A stretch of DNA of 52,363 nucleotides, from the NCBI RefSeq assembly GCF_004010195.1, contig NC_057718.1:44304949-44357311 (forward strand). Direction: 5' to 3'. Source of the stretch: Chiloscyllium plagiosum. Lineage: Eukaryota. The first letter of the stretch is position 1; every line of letters starts with the position of its first letter. The position numbers were made by a program, and so were the translations under genes. Of the stretch, positions 3,680-50,117 are shown one piece after another. The notes under the pieces were generated by a model, which was given only the letters and a program-made list of their open reading frames with translations, was not told the origin of the DNA and made no database searches.

Positions 3680-3865
3680 GAAGGAAGTGCAAATTGAAGC
3701 TTGCATGACCGTTGGTTATGCTTCCAGCGAATGGGCCTAAGCACAAACTCTAAAAGCTCACCTATTATGCAACCCAGGCCTGTCACTGAGCTGCAGACTG
3801 ACAGAAAAGGAGTGTTTTTAATATCATGGAGTAAGCCCACACAGCCCAATAGTGAAATATTGTGT
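3680..3865 (+). pseudogene. USH2A: Usherin (USH2A) pseudo-exon, 5' part of the exon homologous to human exon 64 (FN3 repeat)
   Basis: Manual translation from 3681 gives KEVQIEACMTVGYASSEWA*AQTLKA, then a 1-bp frameshift at ~3759, then PIMQPRPVTELQTDRKGVFLISWSKPTQPNSEILC. This matches recalled human YEIRIQACTTLGCASSDWTFIQTPEIAPLMQPPPHLEVQ...SLLWTGPLQPNGKVLY. Stop TAA at 3738-3740; the expected acceptor AG reads TG (3678-3679). Confidence 0.88.
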
Positions 3866-3871
3866 ATTTAT

Positions 3872-5298
3872 GGGTGAGGTGCCTGATGACTGGAGGGTAG
3901 CTAATGTTGTACCTTTGTTTAAGAAAGGTTGTAAGGAGAAACTGGGGAACCATAGACCTGTGAGTCTGACTTCAGTTGTGGGTAGATTGTTGGAGGTGAT
4001 CATAAAAGATAGGATTTAAGGACTTTTAGAGAAGCAAAAATCGATTAGGGATAGTCAGCATGGTTTTGTGTAAGGAAAATCATGCCTCACAAACTTGATT
4101 GAGGTTTTTGAGGCAATTACCAAAAAGGCTGATGATGGCAGAGCAGTAGGCGTTATTTATTTGGATCTTAGTGAAGCCTTTGACCAGGTTCCACACGATA
4201 GACTAATTAGTAAAATTAGATCACATGGGATTCAGAATACATAATTGCTTAATGGCTGGAGACAGAGAAAAATGGTGGAGGATTGCTTTTCGGACTGGAG
4301 ACCTGTGTCCAGCAGCATTCCACAGAAATCGGTTCTGGGTCCTCTTTTGTTTGTCATTTATGTAAATGATTTGGATGAAAACATAGAAGGCATGGTTAGT
4401 AACTTTGTAGATGACACAAAATTGGTGATATAGCAGCTAGTGAAGAAGATTATCAAAGATTACAAAGGGATCTTGATCAAAAGGGTCAATGGGCTGAAAA
4501 ATGGCAGATGGAGTTCAATCTGGACAAATGCAAGATATTGCATTTTGTATAACAAACAAGGATACAGTTTATACAATTAATGCTAGGGCCTTGGGAAGTG
4601 TTGTAGAACAGAGGGACCTAGGTGTGCAGATACATAATTCTTTAAAGTTTGCAATATATAGTCAGGTTGGTCAAAAAGGCATTTGGCACACTTGCCTTCA
4701 TTGCTCAGTCCTTTGACGATAGGAGTTGGGAAGTCATGCTGAAGTTGTACAGGACCTTCTTGGGGCCTCTTCTGCAATATTGTGTCCAGTTCTGGTAGCC
4801 TAGTTATAGGAAGGATATTATCAAGCTGAGGAGAGTTCGGAAGATATTTGCCAGGATGTTGCCAGATATGAAAGGTCTGCGTTATAAAGAAAGGCTGGAT
4901 AGGCTCGGACTTTTTCACTCGAGCATAACAGGTTGAGAGGCGACCTGATAGAAGTTCATAAAATAATGAGAGGTACAAATAGAGTTGATGGTAGTTGTCT
5001 TTTCCCTAAGATGGGGACTTTCAAGACTAGGGAGCACATTTTTAAGGTAAGGGGAGAGAGATTTTAACAAGACATATAAGGCAAATATTTTACACAGAGG
5101 GTGATTCGCATGTGGAATGAACCTCCTGAAGAAGTGGTGGATGCGGGTACAATGACAACATATAAAAACATTATAGGAAAGGTTTGGAGGGATATTGACC
5201 AGGAGCAGGCAGGTGGAACCAGTTTAGTTTGGGATTATGTTCGGCATGGACCAGTTGGACCGAGAGGTCTATTTCCATGCTGTATAACTCTTTGACTC
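3872..5298 (+). mobile_element. 5'-truncated CR1 LINE (RT domain plus 3' UTR) inserted within the USH2A pseudo-exon
   Basis: DWRVANVVPLFKKG...RPVSLTSVVG, QHGF, PQKSVLGPLLFVIYVNDLD, FVDDTK, YCVQFW, and a 3' tail ...ccatgctgtataactctttgactcta; multiple stops and frameshifts. Confidence 0.93.
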
Positions 5299-5424
5299 TA
5301 TCAACTATACAGAAGAAAAGAAATGCATTCCTCAAGGGATATAGCATTGGTTTTTATTTACAATGGTTCCTCCATGTTATTTCCAGATACAATGTTACTT
5401 CCTTAAACTGCATATTAATATCAG
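5299..5424 (+). pseudogene. USH2A: USH2A pseudo-exon, 3' part of the exon-64 homologue (resumes after the CR1 insertion)
   Basis: Translation YQLYRRKEMHSSRDIALVFIYNGSSMLFPDTMLLP*TAY*YQ, then GT donor at 5425. Matches recalled human YELYRRQIATQPRKSNPVLIYNGSSTSFIDSELLPFTEYEYQ with the same phase-0 boundary. Stops TAA at 5404 and 5416. Confidence 0.9.
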
Positions 5425-6079
5425 GTAAAAAGCACTTCTTAAAACAAAAATCAGAAGCATTGTCATTTGAATGTTGACTCCATATATTTTGCATGTTTCA
5501 TTTAGCACTAATTAAAATAAGGTCTTCTACATCAGGTGCCTTGAACGCCTACAAAGTGGAGAAATGAAGATCAGACGCATAAACATTAAATGTCTTCTTC
5601 AAAAAAAAACTTGGTTCTAAAAATCACCATCACAAAGGTAGCCAGATTGTCAAAGATCTCTCTCAGGAACTATCTGATTCCTTGATGTATTTATTTTATG
5701 GCAATTTGTTTTCTTTGTTCTCAGGTGCAAAATATAAAATGTTCTTCTTCTTTGTAGGAAGGAATTAGAAACAGACCATAAAAACCTGAGATCAGTAATC
5801 CTATTATTGATTGTACCATAGCTCATATAAAACAGAAAATGAAAAATATTGAAAAATGAGAGACATTGTAGCATCTTAATCTCAACAACATGCTCTGTGT
5901 TGATTAATTTGTCTTCAGGACAAATTGGTTGCCTTTTAATGCTTGCAAACTCATGATCTAGATAGGGAATGATTTTATGTCCAGTGCAATATTAATGCAG
6001 TCTTTCTTGATATTTCTTGAACATTGAAAAGGGTTGTAGCATCTCTGGTTCATTGAGAACATGTTATTTTGTGACAAGT

Positions 6080-6245
6080 CTCAGCAATATTTATCCTTTA
6101 ATCAATATAAAACTAAAACATATTTCTGATCATTATATAGCTTCGCTGTTTGTAAGAGTAGCTGTGTGCAAATTGGCTGACATGTTTCCCATGCTGATTA
6201 CTTTTCCAGAGATCTTAGTTGGTGGTACAGCACTTTGAGACATCC
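6080..6245 (+). mobile_element. Deu-domain SINE fragment
   Basis: gctgtttgtaagagtagctgtgtgcaaattggctg...cagcactttgagacatcc, similar to the copy at 2790-2975. Confidence 0.45.
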
Positions 6246-6260
6246 ACACAAAAAAAATGT

Positions 6261-6437
6261 TTTTTTTTTAAAGTCTGGTTATTTCTGAATTCTCAGACAA
6301 TACAACTACTGGGTCATGAGAACTGAATGTTCATCACAAAAAATAATATAAAATGAAAATCTATTTTTTTAAAGTCTGGTTATTTTTGAATTCTCAGACA
6401 ATACAACTATTGGGTCATGAGAACTGAATGTTCATCA
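6261..6437. repeat. Direct duplication of ~75 bp (period ~101 bp) abutting an assembly gap
   Basis: aaagtctggttatttYtgaattctcagacaatacaacta(c/t)tgggtcatgagaactgaatgttcatca occurs twice; the second copy ends at the N-run. Confidence 0.85.
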
Positions 6438-6855
6438 NNNNNNNNNNNNNNNNNNNNNNNNNNNNNNNNNNNNNNNNNNNNNNNNNNNNNNNNNNNNNNN
6501 NNNNNNNNNNNNNNNNNNNNNNNNNNNNNNNNNNNNNNNNNNNNNNNNNNNNNNNNNNNNNNNNNNNNNNNNNNNNNNNNNNNNNNNNNNNNNNNNNNNN
6601 NNNNNNNNNNNNNNNNNNNNNNNNNNNNNNNNNNNNNNNNNNNNNNNNNNNNNNNNNNNNNNNNNNNNNNNNNNNNNNNNNNNNNNNNNNNNNNNNNNNN
6701 NNNNNNNNNNNNNNNNNNNNNNNNNNNNNNNNNNNNNNNNNNNNNNNNNNNNNNNNNNNNNNNNNNNNNNNNNNNNNNNNNNNNNNNNNNNNNNNNNNNN
6801 NNNNNNNNNNNNNNNNNNNNNNNNNNNNNNNNNNGGAGGAGGCAGGAAAAGGGAT

Positions 6856-7250
6856 TGTGGTTAAATTTTATATAATTGTTTAATTTATTGTGTAATGAGT
6901 TAAATAAGGGGAAAGCAAACTTGGGCAGAGTGTAGTAAGACGTTCCCTAAGGCAGTTTGCTTGGAACGATTAACTTGGAGGTTCGGGAATATCTCTGCCT
7001 GCTGATATATAAATGATGGTCTCTGGGAGGAGCTAGTCAGTTTGTTGTTTGTTTTCAGTTCTACAGTCCACAGCCATAATGCATAGAGCCATTTACTACT
7101 TCTTTAGAGATAATGTCTCTTTCTAGGGTTAATGTAGTTAACTAGCCTTAAGCTTTTAAAATTTATTTTGCAGTATGTAATAAACTTCACCTTGATAATA
7201 AATTGTATGCCTCCTCCTCTGAAGACTTCTTTGTGGTTAACTCTTCACCA
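6856..7250 (+). mobile_element. Possible LTR (3' or solo) of an LTR retroelement
   Basis: Purine tract ggagaggcaggaaaaggga immediately precedes TG...; internal TATA-like gatatataaa (~7003) and AATAAA (~7179); ends ...cacCA. Confidence 0.35.
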
Positions 7251-8273
7251 CTTAATGCTAGTAAGCCTTGTAAATAGATATTAAAGCAAGAAGTAATGGC
7301 AACAACAACAAAGAAGATCCTACCATAACCAACAGCCACAAGCACCTCTTACAACATCCTCATCTCCAATGCCTAAAGATATATAAGGTCAGAATTAATA
7401 ATGGCCACATTCTGTGTTGCAATTACTAAATCAGTCACTTTGTTAAAAGAAAGATCACTTTCATGTTGACTACACCTATTCTATAAAGGGTGCATTATGG
7501 TAATTAATACATACATTTCTCTCTTTATATTGAGGCCCACATCTAGTGACAAAAAATCATAAAGATGACCGGAAAAGCTCGTCAAAGAATTTAATCTTCT
7601 ATAAATTGGACTTAACTCTAAAATTAAATTATTGAAATCCTATCTGGAAGGATTCAGTTTTTTAAAAAAACTCCTGAATTCTGTACAATCCAAAATCATA
7701 ACCGTACTGAAAAGAATAAAGATGTTCTACTCTGTGGCAGAATATAGTAACTGCGACATCGGGACTCTACCTTTTTTATGCAGAAACCCAGATCTATGAA
7801 GAGAGACAGAAGCTAACTTAAAGTTGTTGAAGTATGAAATGTTTCCATTATCAGCTAAATGCAAATTTTCTAATTCTTCCTTTGCTCCAAAAACCAATAT
7901 AAATCAAATTTATGAAACACACAAAAGGAACATGGCTGATCATTTACCTGATTTTCTCGCCTTATCTCTATGTCACTATCCATATCCTAGTGTCCAGAAA
8001 CACATTGAGCACGTTCAAGACAAAACTCAATGATTAAGTTTCCACTGCCCTCACAGTAGAAAATGCCAAAGATTCCTCATCCTCTGAGTAAAGAAATGCC
8101 TCCATGTCTTAATTCATCCACCTTTTATTCTGAGATTATGCCCCAATTATATCCCCATCCAGATGAAACATCACATTTAAATCCACCCTTCAGGCACTAA
8201 AAGATTTTGCAAATTTCAATGTGATCGCCTCTCGCCTTCAAAACTGAAAAATATGCAGGTCTGATTTTATCAA

Positions 8274-8428
8274 GTTAAAAATCACACAACACCAGGTTAT
8301 AGTCCAATAGGTTTAATTGGACTCCTTCTTCAGGTGGTTGTCCGTTCCGAAAGCTAGTGGGCTTTAACCTGGTGTTGTGTGATTTTTAACTTTGTGCACC
8401 CCAGTCCAACACCAGCATCTCCAAATCA
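8274..8428. mobile_element. Second family of palindromic short Penelope-terminus-like element (internally deleted copy)
   Basis: Inverted arms aaaaatcacacaacaccaggtta / taacctggtgttgtgtgattttt; 12-bp TSD tgattttatcaa at 8262-8273 and 8429-8440; same family as 42756-42976. Confidence 0.75.
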
Positions 8429-9245
8429 TGATTTTATCAATCTCTCCTCATAAGATGAACCCACCATCCCAGGACTTATTTTAGTGGGCCTCCATTGCTC
8501 TCCTCTACGGCAAATGCATCTTTTACTAGTTAAGTGACCAAAACTATACTTAATACTCAAGGTGCAGTCTCACCAAGATATATAATTGCAGCAAAACTCC
8601 TTTACTGCTGTACTCAAATCTCCATGCACTGAAGACTAACAAAACATTTGTCTTTCTAATTGCTGACTGTACCTCTATGCTACCTTTTAGTGATTGATGA
8701 AAAAAGACATTTGAGTCCCTTTTGACATCAACACTTCCCAATCTCTCAACATTTCAGAAATATCCTGTCTTTCTGGTTTTTTTGCACCACGTTAACACAT
8801 ATTCACAGTAGAATGCATCTGTCATATTCATCCTTATTCACATAGTCTGTCCAAGTGTCATTGAAATCTTCTTGCATCCTCCTTGTAACTTAAATTATCA
8901 CCTAGTTTTGTGCCATCAGCAAACTTGGGAAATATTACATTCGGTCCTCAAGTCTAAGTCATTTATATAGATTTGGAACAGCCATGGTTCTAGCACTGAT
9001 TTATGTTGTACTCCACGAGTAACAGCCAGACATCATGACAACTTCCTGTTCATTCCTAAACTATGATTATATTTTTCTCTGTTAATCAAATCTCAATCCA
9101 TAAGTTTATCAACACTATTCTGTGTGTTCTAACTTTATCTAAAAATCTTTTCTGTGGGACCTTATCAAAAGCTTTCTGAAAATCCAAATACAACCACATC
9201 CATTAATTCTCCTTTATCTATATAGCAAGTAACAATTTCAAATTA

Positions 9246-9398
9246 CAGAGGAAACTTGATTATCCGAAAGACACAGTTAATTGAATTCCGAATAGTGAAA
9301 TGCTAGAAAACATAGTTTAGCCAAGCATCGGCACATTGTGATCTTGCTGAATAATCTGTTATTCGGATAATCGAATGCAGGATAATGAAATTCTTCTG
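9246..9398. mobile_element. Tc1/mariner (Tigger-like) MITE
   Basis: TA|CAGAGGAAACTTGATTATCC ... GGATAATGAAATTCTTCTG|TA: imperfect TIRs with TA duplication, inserted in the CR1. Confidence 0.7.
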
Positions 9399-11104
9399 TA
9401 CTCCAATAGGTTTGTCGAACATAATTTCCCTTACATATTTCCATGTTTACTCTGCTCAACAATAGTATTTTCCAAGTTTCTATAATCATACCTTTAATTG
9501 TTTTAAACGTTTTCTCTTCTACCAAATGCAAACTCACATGTTTGTAATTCTCCATTTTCTCTCTCCCTTCCTTTTCACAAAATGAGATTACACTTGCTAT
9601 TTCCAGTCTACAGGGAACTTTCCAGAATCTAAAGGATATTGAAAGATAACTAAGAGTGTACCCATTAATTCTATTGCTACCACTTTCAACTCTCTGTGAT
9701 GTAGCTTATCTGTTCCAGTGGATTTGTCAACCATCAATCCAGTTAATTTTACTCGTACTAACTCTTAAATATTATTAATTTTATTCAAATTCCTCATTTT
9801 CACAAGTCCTTAGCTTTCTGAGCATTCCTGAGAGATTTTCCATATCAATCTCTATGAAGATGAATATAAACTAATTGTTTTGTTTCTTTGCCCTTTCTCT
9901 GTTCTCCATTACACATGTTCCTGCCTCCACCAATAATTGAACCACGATATTCCTTGCTAGTATTTTCCTTTTCCACAAACTTAAAGAAGCTTTTACAGTT
10001 CACCTTTATCATTCATGCTAGCTTACATTCATGTTCTCTTTTCCCTCTATCAGTTTCTTGGTCACCATTTGCTGGATTCTAAAATGATCTCAATCCTTGG
10101 GTTTACCACTTTTTCTGGCAAATGTGAGAAATTGTTTGATCTAATGCAATCTTTAACTTTTTGTAAGCTAGTTGACTCACCTTTACTGTTGGGTTTCTGT
10201 GGTAGGAGTAATGCATTTTTTTTGTAAGTCATCCAATGCTTCTTACTATCATCTTTTTGTTTATTTTCCAATTCATCACAGCAATTTGTCTCATCTTTAT
10301 TATACTCTTCTGTCAGGCTGAATCCTGCTGTATGCTATTCAGTGCATAAGTAAAACTATGTTTAGTCTATATTATGCTGTTAAATCTTCAGACAGTGGAT
10401 TAGTCCAGATGCTGTAAATCTTAAATAATACTGTCATAATTGGCCCTTAACTGACCTGTTCATAAATAGATTTGTGCAGTGGACAATTAACCTCCTTTTT
10501 TTTCTGTTGCAGATAACATAACTCAAACCATTGAAATCTGCAAGTATCAATTAAACCTGAAATACAGTAACCTGCAATAATCATAATCATTTTGATATTT
10601 ATTTTGATTGCAACTCCCTTTGTATTTAGCTTTTAATATTTAATATGGACAAAGCTGAATTTGTAAAATAATGTATTATAAACTAGAATTAATAAAATAT
10701 CAGGCAAGTGGATAAACTGTTGCATCACTTTTAAAATATTTTAAAAATACCCTTGTAGATGTCAAGCCTTTCCCAGAAGAGTTTGGGTAATTTTCTGACT
10801 AAGGTGGTTAAAGGTGCAGGGGAAAATTGGATTAAATCCATTTTCTAGCACACCACTCATGATGCACAATTACCTAATGCCAGATTTCATTGAGGCGATT
10901 GGCACAAGCCCATGAGGAACCTGTTGATGACTGACTGCAAACGTGGAAGAGAATCCAGCAGTGTGTGTGTGTGGCCAGTGCATACTTCAGTTACCTGGAC
11001 ATCTTAAGCGCAGCTTCTCCTTCGAGAAAGGAAGTAGCATTATTTACTCAGAAACTGCTATTGACTGTCTATGAGGAAACTGGTAATACAAAGAAGCCTA
11101 CCAA

Positions 11105-11315
11105 ATGGAGCCACGGTCCAGGGAGAGGACTCACAGGTTTTCTGATGTGGCACTGGATTCATCAGTGCAGAAGGTGGAAGGAAGGGAGAAGCAATGTTTC
11201 TGAAGGTAGCAAGGTGACCCTCAAGACAAACCCTGAGAAGGAAATGGGAGCAGCTGGCCAAGGAAGTTAATTCTCCAAGAGATAACCTTAGAATTCTTGA
11301 GTGGTGACAGAAGCC
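11105..11315 (+). mobile_element. Harbinger Myb/SANT-like ORF remnant
   Basis: MEPRSRERTHRFSDVALDSSVQKVE, then after a frameshift EAMFLKVAR*PSRQTLRRKWEQLAKEVNS; resembles the Harbinger DNA-binding ORF pattern (RFSD.ALE.L...W..VA.EV). Confidence 0.5.
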
Positions 11316-12265
11316 TGTAAGTCTTAAACATGTGGTTAAATGACTTCATTTTCACATGACATCTCTTAATCATCATTCCACCTAACCTCATGATGCTCAA
11401 TATACCTTATCACCATCACCTCCCTATCAGGAATGTCCAGCAATCTGAATTCAGGCCTAACATTCAGATACTCCATTTTATGCTTATGTACTTTACAATT
11501 CTGCCAACCTCAAACTGCCCTCTTGCTGTTTCCACATGTCTCCAGTTATTGATCCAAGACAGGTACAACACCCAAAGACATTTCAGACAATAATAAGCAT
11601 TCTTCCTTGTCTCTTGGAGGACAATGTGTCCAAGAACAAAGGGAGTCAAATAGATCCAGATCAGGACAGGCACACCTCCACTAACAGAGGCCTATGGAGA
11701 AGATGGTACTCCCCATCATGGGATGACTGATGCCATTGAATCTGGCACTGTCAAGAATAGTCAAGATGATGATGCTGCTTTTCAAATCATACCTCACCCT
11801 CATCCTTACTTCTGACAGGAAGTGCAAGCCGTAGATAGGGTGACCATGCACCTCTAGCTTTCCAACCCTTTCATTAACCCACTCTTCTTTTCTGCTTGTG
11901 AATTTCCAAATAGCCAAGAACTACCATCCAGGAACCCACTGTAGCTTCATGTGTAGTTCAGGATCTACACCTGACTAAGGGTTGAGTTACAATGGCTAGC
12001 TCAGATACAGTGTGGTACATAACTTCGAAGGTGATATAGAAATGGGGACCTGCATGGATGGAGTCACTGGGCACAAACAGGCTTCAGCCAGTCTACAGAG
12101 AAAGGAGGGTTAGTGTGCCAAACCATCAGACAGTGTGTTCTCAGGCAAGGAGTCCCAGACAAGGAATGTCAGGTGAGGACTACAATTGGGTGATGTACAG
12201 GAGATCATTGATAGTCACATACACCAAAATGCTTGGTGCACTGATAGATCTGCCAGATAGGGAAG

Positions 12266-12707: not shown

Positions 12708-12724
12708 CAGATAGGGAAGTGTTT

Positions 12725-14429: not shown

Positions 14430-15400
14430 GTTGTGGTTCTGTTTGCCGAGCTGGGAATTTGTGTTGCAGACGTTCGTCCCCTGTCTAGGTGACATCCTCA
14501 GTGCTTGGAAGCCTCCTGTGAAGCACTTCTGTGATATTTCCTCTGGCATTTATAGTGGTAATCATTAAAAACACAGAAATAGAGAACACACACCGGATCA
14601 TCAATGCCACACTCTCAGGAATCCGATTCACTAGAGAGGAAGAAAAGGACAACCAACTCCCATTCATAGACGTGATGGTACAGAGAACACCGAACGGAGA
14701 ATTCACCACAAAGGTATACAGGAAAGCCACACACACAGACCAAGTCCTGAACTACGAAAGCAACCACCCCAACACACACAAAAGAAGTTGCATCAAGACA
14801 CTGTTCAAAAGGGCCACAACACACTNNNNNNNNNNNNNNNNNNNNNNNNNATGAGTGCTATGCCTCTAGGAATTCCCTGGCTGTTCTCTGTTTGGCTTGT
14901 CCTATAATAGTAGTGTTGTCCCATTCGAATTCATGTTGCTTGTCATCTGTGTGTGTGGCTACTAAGGATAGCTGGTCATGCCGTTTTGTACACCAACTAG
15001 CCACGAAACGACATGACCAGCTATCCTTAGTAGTCACACACTCAGATGCCAAGCAACATGAGTTTGACTGGGACAACACTACTATCATAGGACAAGCCAA
15101 ACAGAGAACAGCCAGGGAATTCCTAGAGGCATGGCACTCATCCACAGATTCAATCAATAAGCACATCGACCTGGACCCAATATACCGACCACTGCAACGG
15201 ACAGCTGGAACTGACAACTGGAAGCGGCAGGGACAAACCACTATAAATGCCGGAGGAAATATCACAGAAGCGCTTCACAGAAGGCTCCCAAGCACTGAGG
15301 ATGTCACCGAGACAGGGGACAAAACGTCTGCAACACAAATTCCCAGCTCGGCGAACAGAACCACAACAATGAGCACCCAAGCTACAAATCTTCTCACAAA
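14430..15400 (+). mobile_element. Penelope-like retroelement with inverted terminal segment, RT thumb and GIY-YIG C-terminus (contains a 25-N gap)
   Basis: IRFTREEEKDNQLPFIDVMVQRTPNGEFTTKVYRKATHTDQVLNYESNHP; AREFLEAWHSSTDSINKHIDLDPIYRPL. 14430-14559 is the reverse complement of ~15237-15368. 14-bp TSD cttccaacaggttt at 14416-14429 and 15401-15414. Confidence 0.9.
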
Positions 15401-16143: not shown

Positions 16144-17526
16144 AGAGTCATAGAGGTGTACACCACGGAAACAGACCCTTCGGTCCAACTGGTCCATGCC
16201 GTCCAGATATTCCCAACCCAATCTAGTCCCACCTGCCCGCACACAGCCTACATTCCTTCAAACCCTTCCTATTTATATAGCCATCTAGATGCCTTTTAAA
16301 CATTGCAATTATACTAGCCTCCACCACTTCCTCTGGCAGCTCATTCCATACATATACCACTGTCTGCATGAAAATGTTTCCCCTTAGGTCTCTTTTATAT
16401 CTTTCACCTCTCACCCTAAATCTATGCCCTCTAGTTCTGGACTCCCCCAACCCAGGGAACAGCCTTTGTCTATTTATCCTATCCATGCCCCTCATGACTT
16501 TATAAACGTCTATAAGGTCACCCCTCAGCTTCCAACGCTGCAGGGAAAACTGCCCCAGCCTACTCAACCTCTCCGTGTAGCTCAAATCCACCAACTCTGG
16601 CAACATCCTTGTAAATCTTTTCTGAACCCTTTCAAGTTTCACAACATCCTTCCGATAGGAAGGAGACCAGCATTACACACAATATTCCAACAGTGGCCTA
16701 ACCAATGTCCTGTACAGCCGCAACATGACCTCCCAACTCCTGTACTCAATACTCTGACCAATATTGGAAAGCATACCAAATGCCTTCTTCACTAATCTAT
16801 CTACCTCCTACTCCACTTTCAAGGAGCTATGAATCTGCACTCCAAGATCTCTTTGTTCAGCAACACTCACTAGGACCTTACCATTAAGTGTATAAGTCCT
16901 GCCAAGATTTGCTTTTCTAAATTAATTTATCTGAATTAAACTCCATCTGCCACTTCTCAGCCCATTGGCCCATCTGATCAAGGTCCTGTTGTAATCTGAC
17001 ATAACCTTCTTCACTGTCCACTAAACCTCCAATTTTGGTGTCATCTACAAAGTTACTAACTACACTTCTTATGCTCACATCCAAATCATTTATATAAATG
17101 CCGAAAAATAGTGGACCCAGCACCGATCCTTTTGGCACTCCACTGGGCACAGGCTCCCAGTCTGAAAAATAAACCTCCACCACCATCTTCTGTCTTCTAC
17201 CTTTGAACCAGTTCTGAATCCAAATGGCTAGTTCTCCCTGTATTCTATGAGATCTAACCTTGCTAACCAATCTCCCATGGGGAACCTTGTCAAACACCTT
17301 ACTGAAGTCCACACGGATCACACCCATCACTCTGCCCTCATCAATCCTCTTTGTTACTTCTTCAATAAACTCAATCAAGTTTGTGAGACATAATTTCCCA
17401 TGCACAAAGCCATGTTGACTATCCCTAATCAGTCCTTGCCTTTCCAAATACATGTACATCCTGTCCCTCAGGATTCCCTCCAACAACTTGCCCACCACTG
17501 ATGTCAGACTGACTGGTCTATAGTTC
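16144..17526 (-). mobile_element. 5'-truncated CR1 LINE, relatively young (RT plus 3' UTR)
   Basis: ORFs 16917-17555 and 16223-16642: NYRPVSLTSVVGKLLE, QHGF, DFSKVFDKVPH, GVPKGSVLGP, FVDDTK, LERVQKRFTRM; gactct tail. Confidence 0.95.
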
Positions 17527-17679
17527 GTCAGGTAAAAGATCATAGTATCATACACTGATGCAAGATATTGAACAAACCTAGATTGCTGTTAAGTCTTTCA
17601 ATTTTTAGAATGAGTTGCAGGTTTTGATTCATTACTATGTAAATCCCAGAACTTCTTTCAAGTCACATTCACAAGATAA

Positions 17680-39225: not shown

Positions 39226-41274
39226 TATAGCTGTTTTATGACACGTGAAAAGAAAACTTAGGGAATGCATATGTAAAATCTGTCACCCAGCAAGTAGCCT
39301 AACACTAGACAGGCAGTAGATAGAAAGAATGTCTTGATGGTTGAAAGTTGAAATGACTATGATCAGAAAAGTGGATCTAATTGAGGAGCAGAATACCTTC
39401 CTATTCACATGCATGGATCCTGGGACATACCATGCAGAGTCATTTGTACTCAATCAATTATTCCTTGCACTCTTACTCCATGGAGAAAGAGTTGGAATCA
39501 ATTTTCCTGGAGTACCAAAACTTGAGGATGTCCCTGATGCTGCAGATTACAAACCATGTTATGTCATCTAAGTAATTTGTTGCAGACTGAAATGATCCTT
39601 TCCCACTGAAAATCAGGGCTACAGTGACTTAGAGATCTACAATTTAGGGCTATCTGTACTCTAGTGTGGAGCTTCAATTGACTATGCAATGAGTGGAACA
39701 GTTCTGTGTTTGCTTCACTTATGAAAAGAGGGTGCCGGATGCATTACTCCTCTGTGTGGTTGAGACATAGCAGTTGGTTCCCGAAGACAGAAAGCATGTT
39801 GGGTTGCCCTAATTCTCTCCTGCAACTTTCTTCTTCCAGTCATTGCTGGATTGAATGGCAATGGATTAGGGTTGAGAAGTCAAATGGTCAACACGTGCTC
39901 CTAATTCATATGTTCGTATGACTTACCCTCGCTGGGGTAACTAATCCTCATTCTCTAGATCAAATGATAAACTCAGCAGAACTCCAGTGACAGCAGCAAC
40001 TGCATCAAACTATAATGACAGAACAATACTACATGTTCAGAATGTAGCGAAAAGACATTTTAAAGAAATATTCCTCCAGCTAAAACAATCAAATGCTGGT
40101 CTNNNNNNNNNNNNNNNNNNNNNNNNNNNNNNNNNNNNNNNNNNNNNNNNNNNNNNNNNNNNNNNNNNNNNNNNNNNNNNNNNNNNNNNNNNNNNNNNNN
40201 NNNNNNNNNNNNNNNNNNNNNNNNNNNNNNNNNNNNNNNNNNNNNNNNNNNNNNNNNNNNNNNNNNNNNNNNNNNNNNNNNNNNNNNNNNNNNNNNNNNN
40301 NNNNNNNNNNNNNNNNNNNNNNNNNNNNNNNNNNNNNNNNNNNNNNNNNNNNNNNNNNNNNNNNNNNNNNNNNNNNNNNNNNNNNNNNNNNNNNNNNNNN
40401 NNNNNNNNNNNNNNNNNNNNNNNNNNNNNNNNNNNNNNNNNNNNNNNNNNNNNNNNNNNNNNNNNNNNNNNNNNNNNNNNNNNNNNNNNNNNNNNNNNNN
40501 NNNNNNNNNNNNNNNNNNNNNNNNNNNNNNNNNNNNNNNNNNNNNNNNNNNNNNNNNNNNNNNNNNNNNNNNNNNNNNNNNNNNNNNNNNNNNNNNNNNN
40601 NNGATGGGTAAAGAAATTGAGGGTTTGGTTAAGAATAAAAAGCAAGCATATGGGAGATATAGACAGGATAGATCGAGTGAATCCTTAGAAGAGTGTAAAG
40701 GCAGTAGGAGTATACTTAAGAGGAAAATCAGGAGGGCAAAAAGGGGACATGAGACAGTTTTGGCAAATAGAGTTAAGGAGAATCCAAAGGGTTTTTGCAA
40801 ATACATTAAGGACAAAAGGGTAACTAGGGAGAGAATAGGGTCCCTCAAAAATCAGCAAGGCGGCCTTTGTGTGGAGCCGCAAGAGATGGGGTAGATATTA
40901 AACGAGTATTTTGCATCAGTATTTACTGTGGAAAAGGACATGGAAGATATAGAATGTAGGGAAATAGACAGTGACATCTTAAAAAATGTGCATATTACAG
41001 AGGAGGAAGTGCTGGATGTCTTGAAACATATAAAAGTGGATAAATCCCCAGGACCTGATCAGGTGTACGCTGGGACTCTGTGGGAAGCAAAGGAAGTAGT
41101 TGCTGGGGCCCTTGCTGAGATATTTTTATCATCGACAGTCACAGGTGAGGTGCTGGAAGACTGGAAGTTGGCTAACGTGGTGCCAATGTTTAAGAAGGAT
41201 GGTAAGGACAAGCCAGGGAACTATAGACCAGTGAGCCGGATGTCAGTGATGGGGAAAATCCTGAGGGACAGGAT

Positions 41275-41600: not shown

Positions 41601-42755
41601 CAGGATGTACCTGTATTTGGAAAGGCAAGGACTGACTTGGGATAGTCAACATGGCTTTGTGCATGGGAAATCACGTCTCACAAACTTGATTGAGTTTTTG
41701 AAGAAGTAACAAAGAGATTTGATGAGAGCAGAACAGTGGATGTAATCTATATGGACTTCAGTAAGGCGTTCAACAAGGTTCCCCATAGGAGACTGGTTAG
41801 CAAGGTTAGATCTCATGGAATACAGGGAGAACTAGCCATTTGGAACAGAACTGGCTCAAAGGTAGAAGACAGAGGGTGGTGGTGGAGGGTTGTTTTTCAG
41901 ACTGGAGGCCTGTGACCAGTGGAGTGCCACAAGGATCGGTGCTGAGTCCACTACTTTTTGTCATTTACATAAATGATTTGGATGTGAACATAGGAGGTAT
42001 AGTTAGTAAGTTTGCAGATGACACCAAAATTGGAGGTGTAGTGGACAACAAAGAAGGTTACCTCCGATTACAACAGGTTCTTGATCAGATGGATGGAGTT
42101 TAATTCAGATAAATGTGAAGTGCTGCATTTTGAGAAAGCAAATCTTAGCAGGACTTATACACTTAATGGTAAGGTCCTAGGGAGTGTTGCTGAACAAAGA
42201 GACCTTGGAGTGCAGGTTCATAGATCCTTGAAAGTGGATTTGCAGGTAGATAGGATTGTGAAGAAGGCATTTGGTATGCTTTCCATTATCAGTCAGGTTA
42301 TTGAGTACAGGAGTTGGGAGGTCATGTTGTGGCTGTACAGGACATTGGTAGGCCACTTTTGGAATATTGCGTGCAATTCTGGTCTCCTTCCTATCGGAAA
42401 GATGTTGTGAAACTTGAAAGTGTTCAGAAAAAATTTACAAAGATGTTGCCTGGGTTGGAGAATTTGAGCTATAGGGAGAGGCTGAAGAGGCTGGGCTGTT
42501 TTCCCTGGAGCGTCAGAGGCTGAGGGGTGACCTTATAGTGGTTTACAAAATTATGAGGGGCATGGATAGGATAAATAAACAAAGTCTTTTCCCTGGGGTG
42601 GGGAAGTCCAGAATTAGAGGGCATAGGTTTAGTGGGAGAGGGGAAAGATATAAAAGAGACTAAGGGACAATGTTTTCACACAGAGGATGGTACGCGTATG
42701 GAATGAGCTGCCAGAGGAAGTGGTGGAGGCTGGTACATTTGCAACATTTAAAAGG

Positions 42756-42976
42756 TAAAAATCACACAACACCAGGTTATAGTCCAACAGGTTCAATTGG
42801 GAGCACAATAGCCTTCGGAGTGCCGCTCCTTCATCAGGTGATCAGCCACAATCACCTGATGTCGGAGCGGTGCTCCAAAAGCTAGTGCATCCAATTAAAC
42901 CTGTTGGACTATAACCTGGTGTTGTGTGATTTTTAACTTTGTACACCCCAGTCCAACACCAGCATCTCCAAATCAT
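42756..42976. mobile_element. Palindromic short Penelope-terminus-like element (family 2) with degenerate hammerhead cores on both arms
   Basis: Inverted arms ~42756-42840 and ~42853-42936; 13-bp TSD aacatttaaaagg at 42743-42755 and 42977-42989; CTGATGA-A-GGAG..CTCC-GAAG on the minus strand and CTGATGT-C-GGAGC..GCTCC-AAAA on the plus strand. Confidence 0.8.
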
Positions 42977-43299
42977 AACATTTAAAAGGCACCTAGATGA
43001 GTTTATGAATAGGAAGGGTTTGGAGGGATATGGTCCGGGTGCTGGCAGTTGGGACTAGATTGGTTTGGGATATCTGGTCGGCATGGACGAGTTGGAGCAA
43101 AGGGTTTGTTTCCATGCTGTACATCTCTGACTCTATGCCTTAGAACAGACGTAAGATGATAATGTGATGGGTTTTATGCCTATGAAAGTGGAGGGGGCTG
43201 CACAAAAGTTAAGGGGTGGAATAAGGTAGAAAAGATTTAATGGCAATTGAACAAAACGGAGTGATAATGTTTGTCTGTAGTGAATGTGAATGGAAGAAC

Positions 43300-44155
43300 A
43301 ATGAATGGCTACATCCATAGCAAAAACATGCGAAATAAGATTTAAGACCAACACATGGCAGTCATATTGATGAACTTAGTTGAGTCCAAAAGGCTGTAAA
43401 CTATCAAATTGAAAGACAATGTGTTGACCTTCAAGTTTGTGTTGAGCTTAACAGCAATTCAATGATAGAAATGTGAGCCGAGAGCAAGGTGGTGAATTAA
43501 AATGGCAAGCAACTGGAGGGATAGCTTCTGTGAAGTGGTTACCCAATCTATGTTTCATCCCCCAAAAATAAAGGAGAGCCTTTGTGAGCAGCAAATACAG
43601 TTCACCAAATTGAAATAAGTAACTGTAGATTGTTCCTTCACCTGGAAGTAGTACAGAGGCCTTGGATGCTAAGGTGTTACACCTTCAGTTGTTATATGGG
43701 TGGATGTGCCAAATTGTTGAGGGTGATTGACGAATGAATCAGGATGTCTTGGAGGGAACAGTTCTTTCAGAAGGGGAGGAGGAGGAGAAGTGTTTGGCAG
43801 TGGCATCAAGCTCAGTGGCAGAAATGGTAGACAATGATCTTCTGAATATAGAAGCTGGTGGGGTAGAAAGTGAAGACAGAGAAAGCTTTATCACAGTGCG
43901 GGAAGAGAAGGAAGGGAAGACTGAGTACAGACCAGTAGTAAATGGATCAGACAATATTAAAGGCTTTGTCAACCACTGCTGGGATGAATCTTTGGTCAAA
44001 GGTTTGCTGCTGTGGAAGCTAAAATAATCAGAACAAATATAATGGAAACAAAGAAACTGGGAGAATGGATTGGACTCTTTATAGTGAGAAGGCTCTGAGG
44101 TTGTTGTGATAGCTGTGGGTTTTGGTGGATTTACAATGGATATTATAAACTATGA
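43300..44155 (-). mobile_element. Old degenerate Penelope-like element (RT thumb plus GIY-YIG endonuclease)
   Basis: Minus strand: NIHCKSTKTHSY...PFSQF-like, IQKII..DATAKHF, and FQVKEQSTVTYFNLVNCICCSQ (compare FQV.Q.FTC.S.NLVYCI.CS.C..LYIGET). Confidence 0.65.
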
Positions 44156-44159
44156 CTGA

Positions 44160-44470
44160 GATGGGCTAAAGGATGGGCAGGATCAGGAGCTCAATAATCC
44201 AAGTCATGGGTTATCTAGGTGAGATAGAGAAGGCAATAGAAGAAGAAGGGAGGGCTGTAATGTTGATCAAGGAACCAGTTAGAGCAGACAGGAGGGATGA
44301 TGTTTGGAAGGATCATCAAATGAAGTTTTATGTGTCGAGGTAAAAAGCACAAAAGGGACAAAAACGCTGTTAAGTGTGGACCACATGCTCCCAAACAGTC
44401 AGGAAAAGATAAATTATGTAATCAAATTTCAGAGAAATCTCAGATTTTAACTTCCCAAATATTAACTGGG
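44160..44470 (+). mobile_element. CR1 APE endonuclease fragment
   Basis: ELN.P...RDREGNRRR.GG-like motif and DFNFPNINW. Confidence 0.6.
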
Positions 44471-44471
44471 A

Positions 44472-44968
44472 CAGAAGGGGTTCAGAAAAGACTTACAAGG
44501 ATGTTGCCAGAATTGGAGGGCTTGAGCCATAGGGAGAGGCTGAATAGACTGGGGCTATTTTCCTTGGAGCATTGGAGGCTAAGGGGTGACCTTACAGAGG
44601 TTTATAAAATCATGAAGGGCATGGATAGGGAATAGTCAAGGTCATTTCCCCAGGTTAGGGGAGTCTAAAACTAGAGGGCATAGGTTTAAAGTAAGAGGAG
44701 AAAGCTTTAAGAGGGAACTAAGGGGCAGCTCTTTCACGCAGAGGGTGATGCGTGTATGGAATGAGCTGCCAGAGGAAGTGGTGGAGGCTGGTACAACTTT
44801 AACATTTAAAAGGCATCTGGATGGATATATGAATAGGAAGTGTTTCAAAGAATATGGGCCAAGTGCTGGAAAATGGGACTGGATTAATTTAGGATATCTA
44901 GTCAGTGTGGACAAGTTGAACTGAAGAATTTGTTTCCGTGCTGTACATCTCTATGAGTCTGTGACTAC
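44472..44968 (+). mobile_element. CR1 3' fragment (young family)
   Basis: VQKRLTRMLPELEGLSHRERLNRLGLFSLEHWRLRGDLTEVYKIM; tail ctgtacatctctatgagtctgtgact. Confidence 0.93.
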
Positions 44969-45084
44969 ATGTGTAAGGTAGGATGAGAATAAAATGCTTA
45001 ATTTGCAACCAGGGAACTTTTTTTAGCCAGTTCTTGGAAAGTCCAACAAGACAAGATCCATTTCAATATTCAGAAACTCAATGA

Positions 45085-45770
45085 CTTGGTATTCACAGTC
45101 TTTTGCAGCAATGAGTTTCACAGATTCACCATGCTCTGGCTAAAGAAATGTCTGTTCCTCTCAGTTCTAAAGGCTTATCTCTTCACTCTGAGGCTTGGGC
45201 CATGATATTTCCTATTAGTTGAAACACCTTGGCCATGCTATCCAGGCCTCTCAGTATTCAACAAGTTTCAATGTGATCTCTGTCATCCTTCTAAACTCTA
45301 TCAAATACAGACTCAGAGTCCTCAACCACTTCTCATATAATAAGTCTTTCATTCCTGGGGGTAAATATCCTCCGGACCTCTTCCAAAGCTAACACATCCC
45401 TCCTTAGATATAGGCCCAAAACTGCTCAGAATATTCCAAGTGTAGTCCGACCAAAGTCTTATACAACCGCAGCAGTATGTCCCTGCTCTTGTATTCTAGC
45501 ACTCTTGAAGTGAATGGTGACATTATATTTGCTTTTCTAATTGCTAACTGAACCTACATTTTAATCTTAAGAGAATCCTGAACTAGGACTCTCAAGTCCC
45601 TTGTGTTTCAGATTTCTGAAGCCTTTCCTCATTTAGAAAATAATCTACACCTCTATTTCTCCTACCAAAGTGCATTTCTCTCACTTTCCATCTGCCACTT
45701 CTTTGCCCACACTACTAGCCCATCCAGGTCCTTTTGCAGCCTTCCACCTCCTCAATGCTACCTGTCTCTT
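45085..45770 (-). mobile_element. Old CR1 fragment
   Basis: Reverse-strand LVGLHLEYSEQF-like and RTERN..FSQSMVNL motifs. Confidence 0.75.
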
Positions 45771-45941
45771 CAATGAAGGCGTAACAGTAAGGGAGTATTT
45801 AGAAAATAGTGACCATATTCAGTTGGATTTTGGATATTTATGGAAAAGCATAAGGATGAGCAGGGAATAAAAGTTCTAAACTAAGAAAAGACTAATTTTA
45901 CTTATATGTAATACAATTTGGCCCAGGTCAACTAGAAGCAC

Positions 45942-46636
45942 TAGAGTCATAGGGTCATAGAGTCTTACAGCATGGAAACAGACTCTTCAATCCAACAAGT
46001 CCAGGCCAACCATGTTCCCAAACCTAACTAATCTCACTTGTCTGCATTTGGACCATATCCCTCCAAATCTTTCCTATTCATGTACTTATCCAAATGCCTT
46101 TTAAATGCTATAACTGTACCTACATCCACCACATCCTCTGGAGCTCATTCCACATACGAACAACTTTCTGTATAAAACAAAATCACCCTTCCTGTCCTTT
46201 TTAAATCTTTCTCCTCTCACATGAAAATATGCCATCTAGTTTTGAACTCCCCTACTCCTGGGAATAGACCCTTGCTATTCATTTTATCTACGTACGTCAT
46301 GATTTTATAAAGCTCTATAAGGTTATCCCTCAAACTCCTACGCTCCAGTGAAAAACAACCCAGCCTATCTTTATAACTCAAATCTTCCATATCTGCACCT
46401 TCTCCAATTTAATAATATCCTTCCTGTAGCAGCGCAACCAGAACTGTACACAGTACTCTACAAAAGGCCTCACCAATGTCCTGTACAAACTCCACATGAC
46501 AGCCCAATTTCTATACTCAATGGTCTGAGCAATGAAGGCAAGCGTGCTAAATACCTTCTTAACCACCCTGTCTATATGTAACGTAAATTTCAAATAACTA
46601 CGCACCTGAACCCCTAAGTCGCTCTGTTCTACAACC
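45942..46636 (-). mobile_element. CR1 3' fragment
   Basis: LYRTLVRPFVEYCVQFW; agagtcatagggtcatagagtc tail. Confidence 0.9.
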
Positions 46637-47169
46637 CAGTAACATGATCAATCATAAGTCATGCTTGAAATGGAAACAATTCCTCCCCAATCTAAAATGT
46701 TTAAGAGAATGATCATAGTTTATTACAAAATAAAAAGTTGGCCTGCTGGGCAGAAGTAACATTTTTTTATAAGGAATATAAGGTAATCCACTGCCCCATT
46801 TTAAAATAAAATGAAATGCCACACGGTTATGATCTTGTTTCTAAAGTTTCCTCTTCAACTTACCATAGTGAAATCAATTGATCTCCCACTCCGTCTCAAC
46901 AGCTGTGTTTTAATGCAACCAATGCATTATCCCCACAACTTGGGAGTAAAGAATCTCAATCTGTTGGGCAAAAAAAGGGAGGTAATTATTATACAGTTCC
47001 TTCTGTATTAATTTGGTTGATATGGTTATTTCTGAACCACCTTATAGTCCAGTAAATGTAGAAAAAACAGAATCTGAGCAATGAAAGGTATTTAAGGAGA
47101 AAATAGTGAGAGAAGAAAACGAATATGTCCTCATAAAGTCATAAGGTGGTGTTGTGTATTTATGCAACT

Positions 47170-47810
47170 GAGTAGAATAGAATACAATACAATAGCCTTT
47201 ATTGTCACATGCACGCAAATGAATGCAATAAGAGGTTTTTAATGTCAATGCTTTGGTGCCATCTTGAATACTGGGTACCTAGGTACAGATACTTTAAGTG
47301 TTTGTTACAGAACTGAAAGAGTAGAAAAAAAAAAGTTCAGCATAGGAATACAAAGTTTTAAAAAGTACTTGACCTACTCAAAGACCAGAATAAGAATATA
47401 GAAGTACCTTTAAAAGTACTCAAATTATTGTCCTTTTCACTGGGTCCATGTCCACTGGGCTTCAGAACACGAGGCCTTGCTGCCTCCATGCGCTAGCCTC
47501 CGGCTTGGACTCACCTCCTGGATTCAACTCCAAGGCCGGGCCTGGACTGCCTCCCACTCTGGGCTCTGTTCTGCAACTCGCCTCCTGTGCAGCATGCTCT
47601 CTGATTCATCTCCCATGCCAGGTTGGACTCAGACTTGCCTCCATTCTCCATTCCCTCTGGGTAAATTTAAAAACTTTAAAGTTGGTGGGTGGGGGCAAAA
47701 AAACTGCAGAAAAGAGAAGAAAAGAAGGAAAAAATGGCGAATATATTGGACTGTCATTAAGAATCTGCTCACATGATGTGATGATGATATCAGCCATTTT
47801 GGAGGAAACC
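47170..47810 (-). mobile_element. Unclassified non-autonomous retroposon (tail tgtgacaataaag...ttcta), related to 50590-51546
   Basis: Minus strand shares tctgtacctaggta...aagatgg(c/t)(a/g)cca and tgtgacaataaag...attcta with 51440-51546. Confidence 0.55.
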
Positions 47811-47959
47811 AGTTTAGTCCAGCATGGTGTCTTGTAGGGTAGGCACCTCCTTAACAAAAGCTATTGTTGTTTTAAACACTGCAGCCCCTTGTCCTTTTTG
47901 AATCATGACAGGTGTGACCAACCATAGGCATAAAGGGACATTAAAGTGAAGATTATTAA

Positions 47960-48975
47960 AACAAATAGAAGCTTATGACAGATAACAAGGGCTCAAAGTG
48001 GATTATAAAAGGTACAGGAAAAAAGGAAATTAGGGAAACAAAGCAATGCATGAGGAAGCATTAACAGGTAGACTACAGGGAAATCCAAAGGGTTTTAATC
48101 TCAAAATATATAAAGAACAAGAGAATAACTCAGAAAAGAGCAGGGTCCATTAGGGACCAGAGAGAAAATCTGTGTATGTGGACACCAAAGGAGAGGACAC
48201 ACTCCCCAATGAACACTTTGCTTCAGTCTTCACAATAGAAAAGGATCACGCAGCTACAAACATCTGGGTGAAGGACAATGCTATATTAGAAGAAATTAAG
48301 ATAGGGCACAAGGATATGCTAGTGGTTTAGTTGTCTTAAAAGCGAATAAATCTGAAGGGCCAAATGAGATGCATGGGTGTTCAGGGAGGTAAGGGAAGAG
48401 ATATCAGAGTTCCTGGCAATAATTTTTAAAACTTCTCTGGTAACAGTTGACGTGCCAGAGGATTGGGGGATGACTAACGGTATCCCATTACTAAAAAAAG
48501 TGAGAAAGGGACAAACCAGAAAATTATAGGTCAATCAACCTAAACTCAGGTGATGAGAAAGTTATTCGAAGGAACTCTGAGGGACAGAATATGTCTGCAC
48601 ATGGAGAGACACTGATTAATTTGTTATCATTCATTTGTTAAGGGAACGCTGTGTTTGACAAATTGGATCAAATTTTTTGAGGAGGTAACAGGGGTCTTGA
48701 CGATGGTGATGCATTTGATGTGGTCCACAGGATCTTTAGATGAGGTGTTCTGTGACTGACTGGTTGAGAAAGCAAGACCAAAGTAAGATCAATGAGATCC
48801 AAGGCAAAGACGCATATTGTGTCCCAAATTGATTAGAAGGTTGGAAATTGAAGGTGATGATAGAAGGATGTTTCTGTGTCTGGAAATCTAATTTCAGTGG
48901 AGGTCCACAGAGTTTGCTGTTAAGGCCATTACTATTTGTGGTGTATATTAATGGTTTGGACTTAATTGTAAGAAG
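47960..48975 (+). mobile_element. Old CR1 ORF2 fragment
   Basis: GNPKGF, FASVFTIEK, VPEDWGMTN, PENYRSINL, FFEEVT motifs. Confidence 0.8.
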
Positions 48976-49904
48976 CTTGGAATCAAAAGAGTTGTGAATG
49001 CAGTTGGAAAGAGACTGAATCAGGAAGATAAAATAGAATTAATACAGGAACAAATAAGTTCAATGGGGCAGGATCATGCTGAAACAATGTCCTGTTTGTG
49101 AATTTTGAGAAGGAGGTAGAAGTGGGTTGTTAGGCTATGAGGTGGGAAGCATTGGGAATGAACTAATGTCAGTGAAATTCCTGGAAATAATGGCTTGATA
49201 TTTGGTATTGATGTTATCATCCAGGAGGAGGTACAAAGAAATATCTGAGAGTTCGCATTCAGCTCAAGTTGGCATTCAGTTGGCATTTGCAAGGTAGAGG
49301 TCAGTTTGCTGTATAACAACAGCACCACCCTTTTCAGTAGGTTTGGTAACAATGTCAAGATTTGACCTGAAAGAATGAGTTCACGATGTTCAGAGAGAGA
49401 CAGGTTCAAATAAATGAAGAAATTAAAATAGCTCCTGTCACACTGCCCTTTCTCAATGAAAAGACCATTAGACACCTAATGAAGGCAAACAGGTATAAGG
49501 AGAATATTGAGGCAAGATGAAAGGATCCACTGGTTGGTCAGAGGACTGGTGTCTTTACCAAACTGATTCTATATTTTTTGAACCTCTAAACCCAGATCAT
49601 TTCTCAATTTTGTGCTTTAAAACATTGCAATAAAAATATGAAAAAAATAAAAAGATAAAAAAATTGAAAGTAAAAGGTAACAGAAGAAGAATCCTGTGAC
49701 TTGTGGAGTTTGTTATCATTATGGTGGGGTCATATAGGATAATATTTCCAATGTAGTTGGCTATGTACTATAACAATTAGTGAAGTAAGGTCCAATTTTG
49801 CCCTGTAGGCCTTCTCTCATGTAATAAATTGTTTCCTGATGCTAAAGCATGACTATTTAATAGAGTTTGTGTTCTTTCTACTATAATCTTTCTTTAACCT
49901 TCAG

Positions 49905-50117
49905 GTATGTTCAGTGAATTCTGGAGCATAAACATCGAGTGGATGAACTCGTTCTGGAACAGAGCAAGCCCCGCCTGAAAGCCTGTCTCCTGCCAGCTTT
50001 ATTTCAGTGGACTTAAGCTGAGCAGCAGGAAAATTCACTCCTCCTACCCAACCAAATGGAATTATCAGCTTGTACAGGTTGTTTGCTGACAACCAGACCA
50101 GAAATGTTGACTTATTG
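49905..50117 (+). pseudogene. USH2A: USH2A pseudo-exon homologous to human exon 65 (FN3 repeat)
   Basis: Polypyrimidine tract plus CAG acceptor ending at 49904 and GTAAG donor at 50118. The 71 codons read VCSVNSGA*TSSG*TRSGTEQAPPESLSPASFISVDLS*AAGKFTPPTQPNGIISLYRLFADNQTRNVDLL, aligning without gaps to recalled human VWAVNSAGKAPSSWTWCRTGPAPPEGLRAPTFHVISSTQAVVNISAPGKPNGIVSLYRLF. Stops at 49929, 49944 and 50019. Confidence 0.92.

Follow-up and report, generated by a model that had tools for sequence, protein, structure and literature searches.

Probable decay of the usherin gene USH2A along almost its whole length, with an apparently preserved 3' end, in a galeomorph shark

Usherin exon remnants in the window

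The window, by which we mean the whole 52,363-nucleotide stretch of DNA analysed, carries two remnants of USH2A exons on the + strand. Exon A is present in two parts: a 5' part (3680-3865) with FN3 sequence, which aligns with Cetorhinus usherin up to residue 4687, and a 3' part (about 5296-5424, +), which aligns with Cetorhinus residues about 4688-4735. Exon B (49905-50117, +) comprises the end of one FN3 domain and the start of the next. The two remnants are separated by an intron of about 44.5 kb (5425-49904, +), join in phase and correspond to consecutive residues of Cetorhinus usherin (4651-4735 for exon A, 4730-4791 for exon B). Exon B exhibited 63% identity to residues 755-825 of a sawshark usherin-like protein (E 4e-24), and its best named match is a shark usherin-like protein. 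Judged by these alignments, the match of both exons to usherin is far above chance. A preliminary description of this DNA had read the two segments as consecutive, in-phase usherin exons, which the Cetorhinus and sawshark alignments bear out; we also looked for a better match to another FN3 protein, and usherin remained the best, with all other loci matched in the genome at most 44% identical and laminin-, titin- or other FN3-like. A Pfam search with exon B alone, a query too short and too broken, returned no family.

All six in-frame stops given in the preliminary description were recovered: TAA at 3738 in the 5' part of exon A, TAA at 5404 and 5416 in its 3' part, and TAA at 49929, TGA at 49944 and TGA at 50019 in exon B. 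The 1-bp frameshift placed near 3759 was likewise seen in tblastn, where pieces in two frames switch between 3758 and 3761 (frame 3642 to frame 3641). Exon A ends at a donor gt (5425-5426), and exon B retains both splice sites (ag at 49903-49904, gt at 50118). At the exon A acceptor, where AG is expected, we observed TG (3678-3679), as had been described, although the ancestral boundary at this position is inferred from alignment alone; a pyrimidine-rich tract lies 5' of it, and the usherin alignment of exon A begins at a split codon at 3680.

The two parts of exon A are separated by a 5'-truncated and decayed fragment of a LINE (non-LTR retrotransposon; about 3866-5295, boundaries uncertain by about 8 bases, +), which contains stops and frameshifts of its own. 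The proposed LINE insertion was supported by Pfam (RVT_1, E 2.2e-23, profile positions 3-162 of 205, stops read through as X), and no target-site duplication of 6 bases or more was found around it. The intron between exons A and B contains a second RT fragment on the - strand (16920-17588), as well as assembly gaps at 6438-6834, 14826-14850 and 40103-40602. Open reading frames of at least 180 amino acids in the window were rejected as gene candidates, being mostly artefacts of N runs; one is the second RT fragment, and one is without a family.

In contigs from an independent sample of the same species, we observed 0 differences over positions 49500-50058; this makes the three exon-B stops genuine, as opposed to errors of the assembly. 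In two related species, with a divergence of 2.0-2.3%, we counted 20 and about 21 substitutions (one main-contig substitution possibly being unlisted for the latter), with the three exon-B stop codons unchanged in both. This read and contig check, which covered exon B, shows that the exon-B lesions are fixed and common to the two related species. A single-cell RNA run (about 2 in 100 of the run) made contact solely at an A-rich tract (49629-49664), with loose ends, and is uninformative on expression; none of the listed sequence sets containing the stretch is recorded as RNA.

Decay along the USH2A locus

Usherin remnants lie in protein order on a single contig (G000:C9:43.413-44.396 Mb, about 0.98 Mb), on which about 60 exon remnants were found, with residues 20-5221 placed sequentially; an unplaced contig holds one exon. 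The remnants are collinear, exon by exon, with chimaera and shark usherins. The domain set seen at the locus includes the laminin N-terminal domain, laminin-EGF domains, FN3 arrays, the transmembrane helix and a DTQL end, with the LamG region seen solely in table matches. In-frame stops and frameshifts recur from the first coding exons as far as about residue 4812 (of 5221), together with internal deletions, the loss of cysteines and one or more LINE insertions.

We inspected base by base five N-terminal exons and the sequence from 44.105 Mb onward, except C9:44357312-44370152. All five N-terminal exons contain in-exon stops, one of them is frameshifted as well, and conserved cysteines of the EGF domains have disappeared. 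For the greater part of the N-terminal and middle exons we relied on the tables of the genome search, in which 10 of the 17 collinear C9 matches for residues 1-1600 and 10 of the 14 for residues 1601-3230 contain stops, counts that may include intron flanks. The exon on the unplaced contig, obtained in the search with residues 1-1600, is decayed (60% identity, one TGA). Across residues 3152-4791, there are 26 stops and several frame changes in 1467 aligned codons. One upstream exon carries 6 stops at 38% identity; some others lack stops and reach 72-88% identity. Six stops fall in the 1.25 kb exon at C9:44295182-44296432.

We used the rate of change at invariant sites in protein alignments as a proxy for neutral evolution. 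The remnant is 65-67% identical to four intact sharks, which are 84-87% identical among themselves over the same region. Of the upstream sites invariant in four sharks and the chimaera, 239/896 are changed in the remnant, versus 2.8-5.4% in intact sharks (leave-one-out), a substitution rate about 6-fold that of the latter. We conclude with considerable confidence that USH2A is a unitary pseudogene along almost the whole of its length of about 1 Mb, and that the window is part of the ancestral usherin locus in a galeomorph shark. The long transmembrane isoform of 5,200 residues, which the preliminary description had considered dead, cannot be made, and neither can the N-terminal secreted short isoform; because the lesions reach the first coding exons, the short isoform is dead too.

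It is very unlikely that the locus instead arose by duplication, or is an artefact of assembly or haplotypes, with a working USH2A absent from the assembly. Such a copy could have been missed in an assembly of 101,977 contigs, from which sequence could be missing and in which one exon sits on an unplaced contig, and the genome searches used a stricter filter that may miss weak matches; however, the remnants form a single collinear locus with gene-typical intron sizes that runs into intact 3' exons, the unplaced exon is itself decayed, and the stops recur in the other sample and in two other species. Furthermore, a search with residues 1-5221 under this strict filter found neither a second exon set nor a better or intact usherin copy, which had also been looked for as a possible explanation of the lesions, elsewhere in the 3.56 Gb assembly, and usherin is single-copy, isoforms aside, in the vertebrate proteomes among the best 120 of 250 matches. 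Continued use of the gene through exon skipping, stop read-through or editing is more improbable still. The stop-free upstream exons would be compatible with it, and FN3 exons are often in phase, which makes skipping possible in principle; yet most of the examined exons are hit, including signal/LamG-like, laminin N-terminal and EGF exons that cannot be skipped without loss of the fold, and the frameshifts, the 6-stop exon, the LINE within an exon and the elevated invariant-site rate throughout all argue against it.

The terminal exons

The last seven exons have kept all of their splice sites and contain 409 open codons ending in DTQL, which we take to be the PDZ-binding motif of usherin. With one alternative exon included, all eight terminal exons are bounded by ag and gt in fitting phases, so that all 16 splice dinucleotides are kept. 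A single TAG, near residue 4812, occurs at codon 8 of the first terminal exon and is followed by the 409 open codons up to the conserved stop, which keeps its position after DTQL; the transmembrane helix is preserved as well. In the last five exons, 7/179 invariant sites are changed (3.9%), versus 239/896 upstream (Fisher 9.5e-14), and intact sharks exhibited changes at 1.4-5.4% of invariant sites in the same comparison. The first two terminal exons show intermediate decay, with changes at 14/94 invariant sites, among them a conserved Cys and residues of the FN3 core, in addition to the one stop. The preliminary description had taken at least the long transmembrane isoform to be dead at this locus; the decay extends to about residue 4812, whereas the 3' end (last FN3 domain, transmembrane helix and PDZ-binding tail) is undecayed in sequence and looks constrained.

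For the last five to seven exons, which comprise the final FN3 domain, the transmembrane helix and the DTQL tail, the chance that purifying selection still acts is about even. Their product may be a short membrane-anchored protein still able to bind PDZ scaffolds, in which case the extracellular link functions would be left to ADGRV1, or would be dispensable in this lineage. The corresponding scenario, in which the full-length protein was lost across the whole carpet-shark order and a working 'mini-usherin' (last FN3, transmembrane and PDZ-binding tail) is made from an internal start, is one we put forward tentatively, at somewhat below an even chance.

An equally tentative alternative is that the gene is dead throughout, right up to its 3' end: constraint may have been lost there later, a C-terminal isoform having long survived and then died, or the conservation may be non-coding, owing to regulatory elements or an overlapping transcript. 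The two decayed first terminal exons and their one stop, the TAG at codon 8, speak for this alternative and therefore make a later loss possible instead of present function. The open frame is also a limited guide; that of the last five exons would arise by chance with P of about 0.04 at d = 0.13, which is only modestly unlikely, and a short neutral period (d = 0.02-0.035) makes zero stops in 409 codons unremarkable (P 0.2-0.4). No transcript evidence was found for the terminal exons. In contrast, the invariant-site rate of the last five exons matches that of intact sharks, the splice dinucleotides, phases, transmembrane helix, stop position and DTQL are all kept, and non-coding constraint alone is not expected to keep both frame and amino acids. 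For the working 'mini-usherin', we found no natural C-terminal usherin isoform in the literature; the accessible portion of PMC12969115 describes fragments of ADGRV1 alone.

Distribution of the loss and comparison with known systems

Annotation models give a full-length usherin in at least seven sharks of four other orders (Heterodontus, Cetorhinus, Carcharodon, Mustelus, two Scyliorhinus species and Heptranchias) and in the chimaera Callorhinchus. Intact usherins include those of Cetorhinus maximus (XP_078412490.1), Mustelus asterias (XP_078086591.1), Scyliorhinus canicula (XP_038667644.1), Heterodontus francisci (XP_067901794.1) and Callorhinchus milii (XP_007902721.1). The chimaera usherin has 4760 residues, and that of the sawshark is a split model. 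No batoid usherin was present among the best 120 of 250 matches, which is weak evidence. The loss in a shark proposed in the preliminary description therefore stands for this shark and two close relatives and does not extend to sharks at large: the USH2A loss is lineage-specific. Of the partner genes named there (ADGRV1, WHRN and PDZD7), an ADGRV1-type locus in this genome appears intact.

In the tree, the remnant branches off as the sister of Cetorhinus+(Mustelus,Scyliorhinus) (support 100 and 95), its branch measuring 0.394 compared with 0.06-0.10 in the sisters. Neutral decay since inactivation may amount to about 0.13-0.2 substitutions per site, which would exceed the divergence per lineage between the three species more than 10-fold and would thus make the inactivation old. 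It probably occurred early on the branch separating this lineage from lamniform and carcharhiniform sharks, a position in the tree where a carpet shark would be expected.

USH2A is mutated more often than any other gene in Usher syndrome and is also a leading cause of recessive retinitis pigmentosa. A lineage of free-living vertebrates long without full-length usherin is a natural knock-out, which can show compensation, ADGRV1 being apparently present, and differences in the ankle-link and periciliary complex. If the 'mini-usherin' reading is true, the function of the membrane-anchored tail is separable from the formation of ankle-link and periciliary fibres, and a vertebrate can hear, keep its balance, sense with its lateral line and see normally when the usherin ectodomain is missing. 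A rotten ectodomain beside a pristine anchor and tail would mark the part of usherin still under selection, which bears on shortened therapy constructs. In work by Liu et al. (2007, PNAS), Ush2a knock-out reportedly led to retinal degeneration and cochlear hair-cell defects.

By the protein names among the matches listed, usherin is kept from cnidarians to mammals, and USH2A is described in the accessible part of PMC7617844 as flanking ERR-gamma in jawed vertebrates. A full-text literature search found no published report of this USH2A loss, and the accessible parts of PMC13723404 and PMC7617844 carry no mention of a shark USH2A loss. The remnant shares with the usherin of other cartilaginous fishes its exon and domain order and its single locus, and it groups inside sharks in trees; the difference is that most of its exons upstream of about residue 4812 have a broken frame.

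As far as the accessible parts of the sources go, the loss resembles that of short-wave opsin in cartilaginous fishes (PMC12361510) and of noggin1 in elasmobranchs (PMC10869764), in which a widely kept vertebrate gene is also missing or dead in a chondrichthyan lineage. Those losses cover all or most cartilaginous fishes or elasmobranchs, whereas the USH2A loss is confined to one shark lineage, has left a readable pseudogene of one megabase and concerns a structural protein of hair bundles and photoreceptors. Zebrafish and mouse Ush2a mutants with phenotypes are described in the accessible portion of PMC12969115, and full-length usherin is absent in these engineered animals as it is here; unlike their loss, which belongs to the laboratory, that of the shark is natural, old and fixed in a free-living species, with the 3' anchor and tail exons preserved.

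Identity and lesions of the two exon remnants

The translation of exon remnant B (window positions 49905-50117, +), with stops written as X, was used as a protein query. Its top named match was a 'usherin-like' protein of the sawshark Pristiophorus japonicus (63% identity across 71/71 residues), in agreement with the preliminary description, which had assigned the window exons to usherin (USH2A). This 1201-residue protein represents the C-terminal quarter of usherin; in the Callorhinchus model (4760 residues) it matches residues 3582-4659. Exon B is flanked by ag and gt, and carries a TAA at 49929 and TGAs at 49944 and 50019. In exon remnant A, the 5' part (3680 to ~3865, +) contains a TAA at 3738 and a frame change between 3758 and 3761, the 3' part (~5296-5424, +) contains TAAs at 5404 and 5416 with gt directly after, and between them lies a 5'-truncated LINE fragment (~3866-5295, +; Pfam RVT_1, E 2.2e-23) with stops of its own. 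The six stops, frameshift and LINE insertion previously claimed were all recovered at these places, and the claimed in-phase junction holds, since A and B align to consecutive usherin residues. The TG described in place of an acceptor AG does precede 3680; the dinucleotide itself is thus confirmed, and it can reasonably be read as the former acceptor of exon A.

The 44.5 kb intron also contains a second reverse-transcriptase fragment (16920-17588, -; RVT_1, E 3.9e-24). The window has assembly gaps at 6438-6834, 14826-14850 and 40103-40602, and a 188-residue open frame (50563-51126, +) shortly 3' of exon B, for which a family search returned nothing above threshold.

Decay along the whole gene

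A search of the 3.56 Gb assembly with the sawshark protein gave 22 matches, 13 of them on C9, the contig containing the window (C9:44304949-44357311); 12 of the 13 were collinear and 7 contained stops, and the remaining 9 matches had identities of 33% or lower. We then inspected C9:44104949-44304948 base by base, and tblastn with chimaera and basking-shark (Cetorhinus maximus) proteins revealed 28 pieces in protein order (residues 3152-5120). Projected on the basking-shark protein, 26 stops fell within 1467 aligned codons before residue 4792, and within-exon frame changes were observed on C9 (e.g., 44150999, 44223524 and 44250286) as well as in the window. One exon remnant (38% identity) carried six stops, as did a 1.25 kb exon that had additionally suffered several deletions. 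Genome searches with residues 1-1600 yielded 17 collinear matches (C9:43.413-43.682 Mb; stops in 10/17), and with residues 1601-3230 another 14 (C9:43.741-44.093 Mb; stops in 10/14). One further decayed exon of the N-terminal part was found on an unplaced contig (C96568:17790-17999, -; residues 312-381, 60% identity, one TGA); its position on this small contig instead of C9 suggests that the assembled locus has a local gap. All five N-terminal exons inspected had in-exon stops, one had a frameshift, and conserved EGF cysteines were substituted; the stops and frameshift therefore disable the short secreted isoform along with the long one, whose death had already been claimed. Neither full-length nor short usherin can be made from the C9 locus.

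An intact USH2A elsewhere in the genome, for which the preliminary description had allowed, did not emerge: usherin protein searches across the 3.56 Gb found no better copy, and the other matches were laminin-like, titin-like or other FN3 genes with identities of 44% or lower. Another contig (C7:43017919-43061151) has FN3-rich open frames, as long as 5734 residues, that match usherin weakly (25-30% identity) and resemble a giant exon of titin type.

Age and distribution of the loss

Sequencing runs from three organisms contain the exon-B stretch, and four runs were compared over 49500-50500. A contig from a separate study of the same species showed no differences over 49500-50058, so that all three exon-B stops match in an independent sample. 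Related species B, covered over the full kilobase, had 20 substitutions, all of them outside the three stop codons; related species C had ~21, of which one may be unlisted, with none in the exon-B stop codons among those listed. As these codons are unaltered in three species, the stops are older than the three-species split. The upstream stop density (1.8% of codons) corresponds, in a simple mutation simulation, to ~0.13-0.2 neutral substitutions per site, and the three species differ pairwise by 2.0-2.3%; this suggests that inactivation predates their divergence by an order of magnitude. A single ancient loss would have occurred in the common ancestor of the three species at least, and probably in that of a larger clade.

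Annotated full-length usherin models exist for Heterodontus francisci, Cetorhinus maximus, Carcharodon carcharias, Mustelus asterias, Scyliorhinus canicula, S. torazame, Heptranchias perlo and Callorhinchus milii, and a split model exists for the sawshark. Among the protein database matches listed, there was no carpet-shark usherin, nor any from batoids (skates, rays), compared with seven sharks and the chimaera present. Stegostoma and Rhincodon are represented by PTPRQ proteins in another set of matches, and their proteomes are therefore in the database; the missing carpet-shark and batoid usherins among the matches listed are suggestive only. Maximum-likelihood trees (X at stops; upstream and C-terminal parts separate) placed the remnant as sister to Cetorhinus+(Mustelus,Scyliorhinus), with Heterodontus and Pristiophorus outside (support 100 in the upstream and 95 in the C-terminal tree), which is the known position of carpet sharks. 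Its upstream-tree branch was 0.394, versus 0.06-0.10 for sister tips.

At C2:47484767-47751745 (47.48-47.75 Mb of another contig), we found eight Calx-beta matches, seven of them stop-free, and one EPTP match, a pair presumably unique to ADGRV1. By this shallow test the ADGRV1-type locus looks intact, giving no sign of this usherin partner being lost alongside.

The 3' module and its significance

Downstream of the window, the terminal USH2A exons (C9:44371665-44395562) contain no frameshifts. A single TAG stands at codon 8 of the first (C9:44371665-44371903), past which there are zero further lesions to the gene end; this exon is followed by C9:44372817-44373034, 44376063-44376239, 44382079-44382162, 44383823-44384052 (with the transmembrane helix), 44394372-44394587 and 44395473-44395562, with an alternative 72-base exon at 44386120-44386191. 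The ag and gt are kept throughout with compatible phases, and the spliced exons give 409 open codons, finishing at the conserved stop after DTQL. Upstream (residues 3152-4791), the remnant shares 65-67% identity with intact sharks, versus 84-87% among the latter; in the C-terminal exons the values are 81-86% and 85-93%. Among sites invariant in four sharks and the chimaera, the remnant is altered at 239/896 (26.7%) upstream, 14/94 (14.9%) in the first two terminal exons and 7/179 (3.9%) in the last five (last five versus upstream, Fisher p = 9.5e-14), with intact sharks at 1.4-5.4% in leave-one-out comparison. Freedom from stops (at d = 0.13, P ~0.005 over 409 codons and ~0.04 over the last five exons) is weaker evidence by itself than this contrast. 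We read the sequence pattern as purifying selection on the last FN3, membrane anchor and tail, still acting or until recently. There is perhaps an even chance that a short anchor-plus-tail product would persist and continue PDZ scaffold binding.

Full-text literature searches found no published report of USH2A loss in sharks, and for usherin, pseudogene and gene loss together only a cavefish paper. The shark loss is a lineage-specific unitary pseudogene, an event type already known; its interest lies in which gene is hit and in the sharp boundary of the preserved 3' module.
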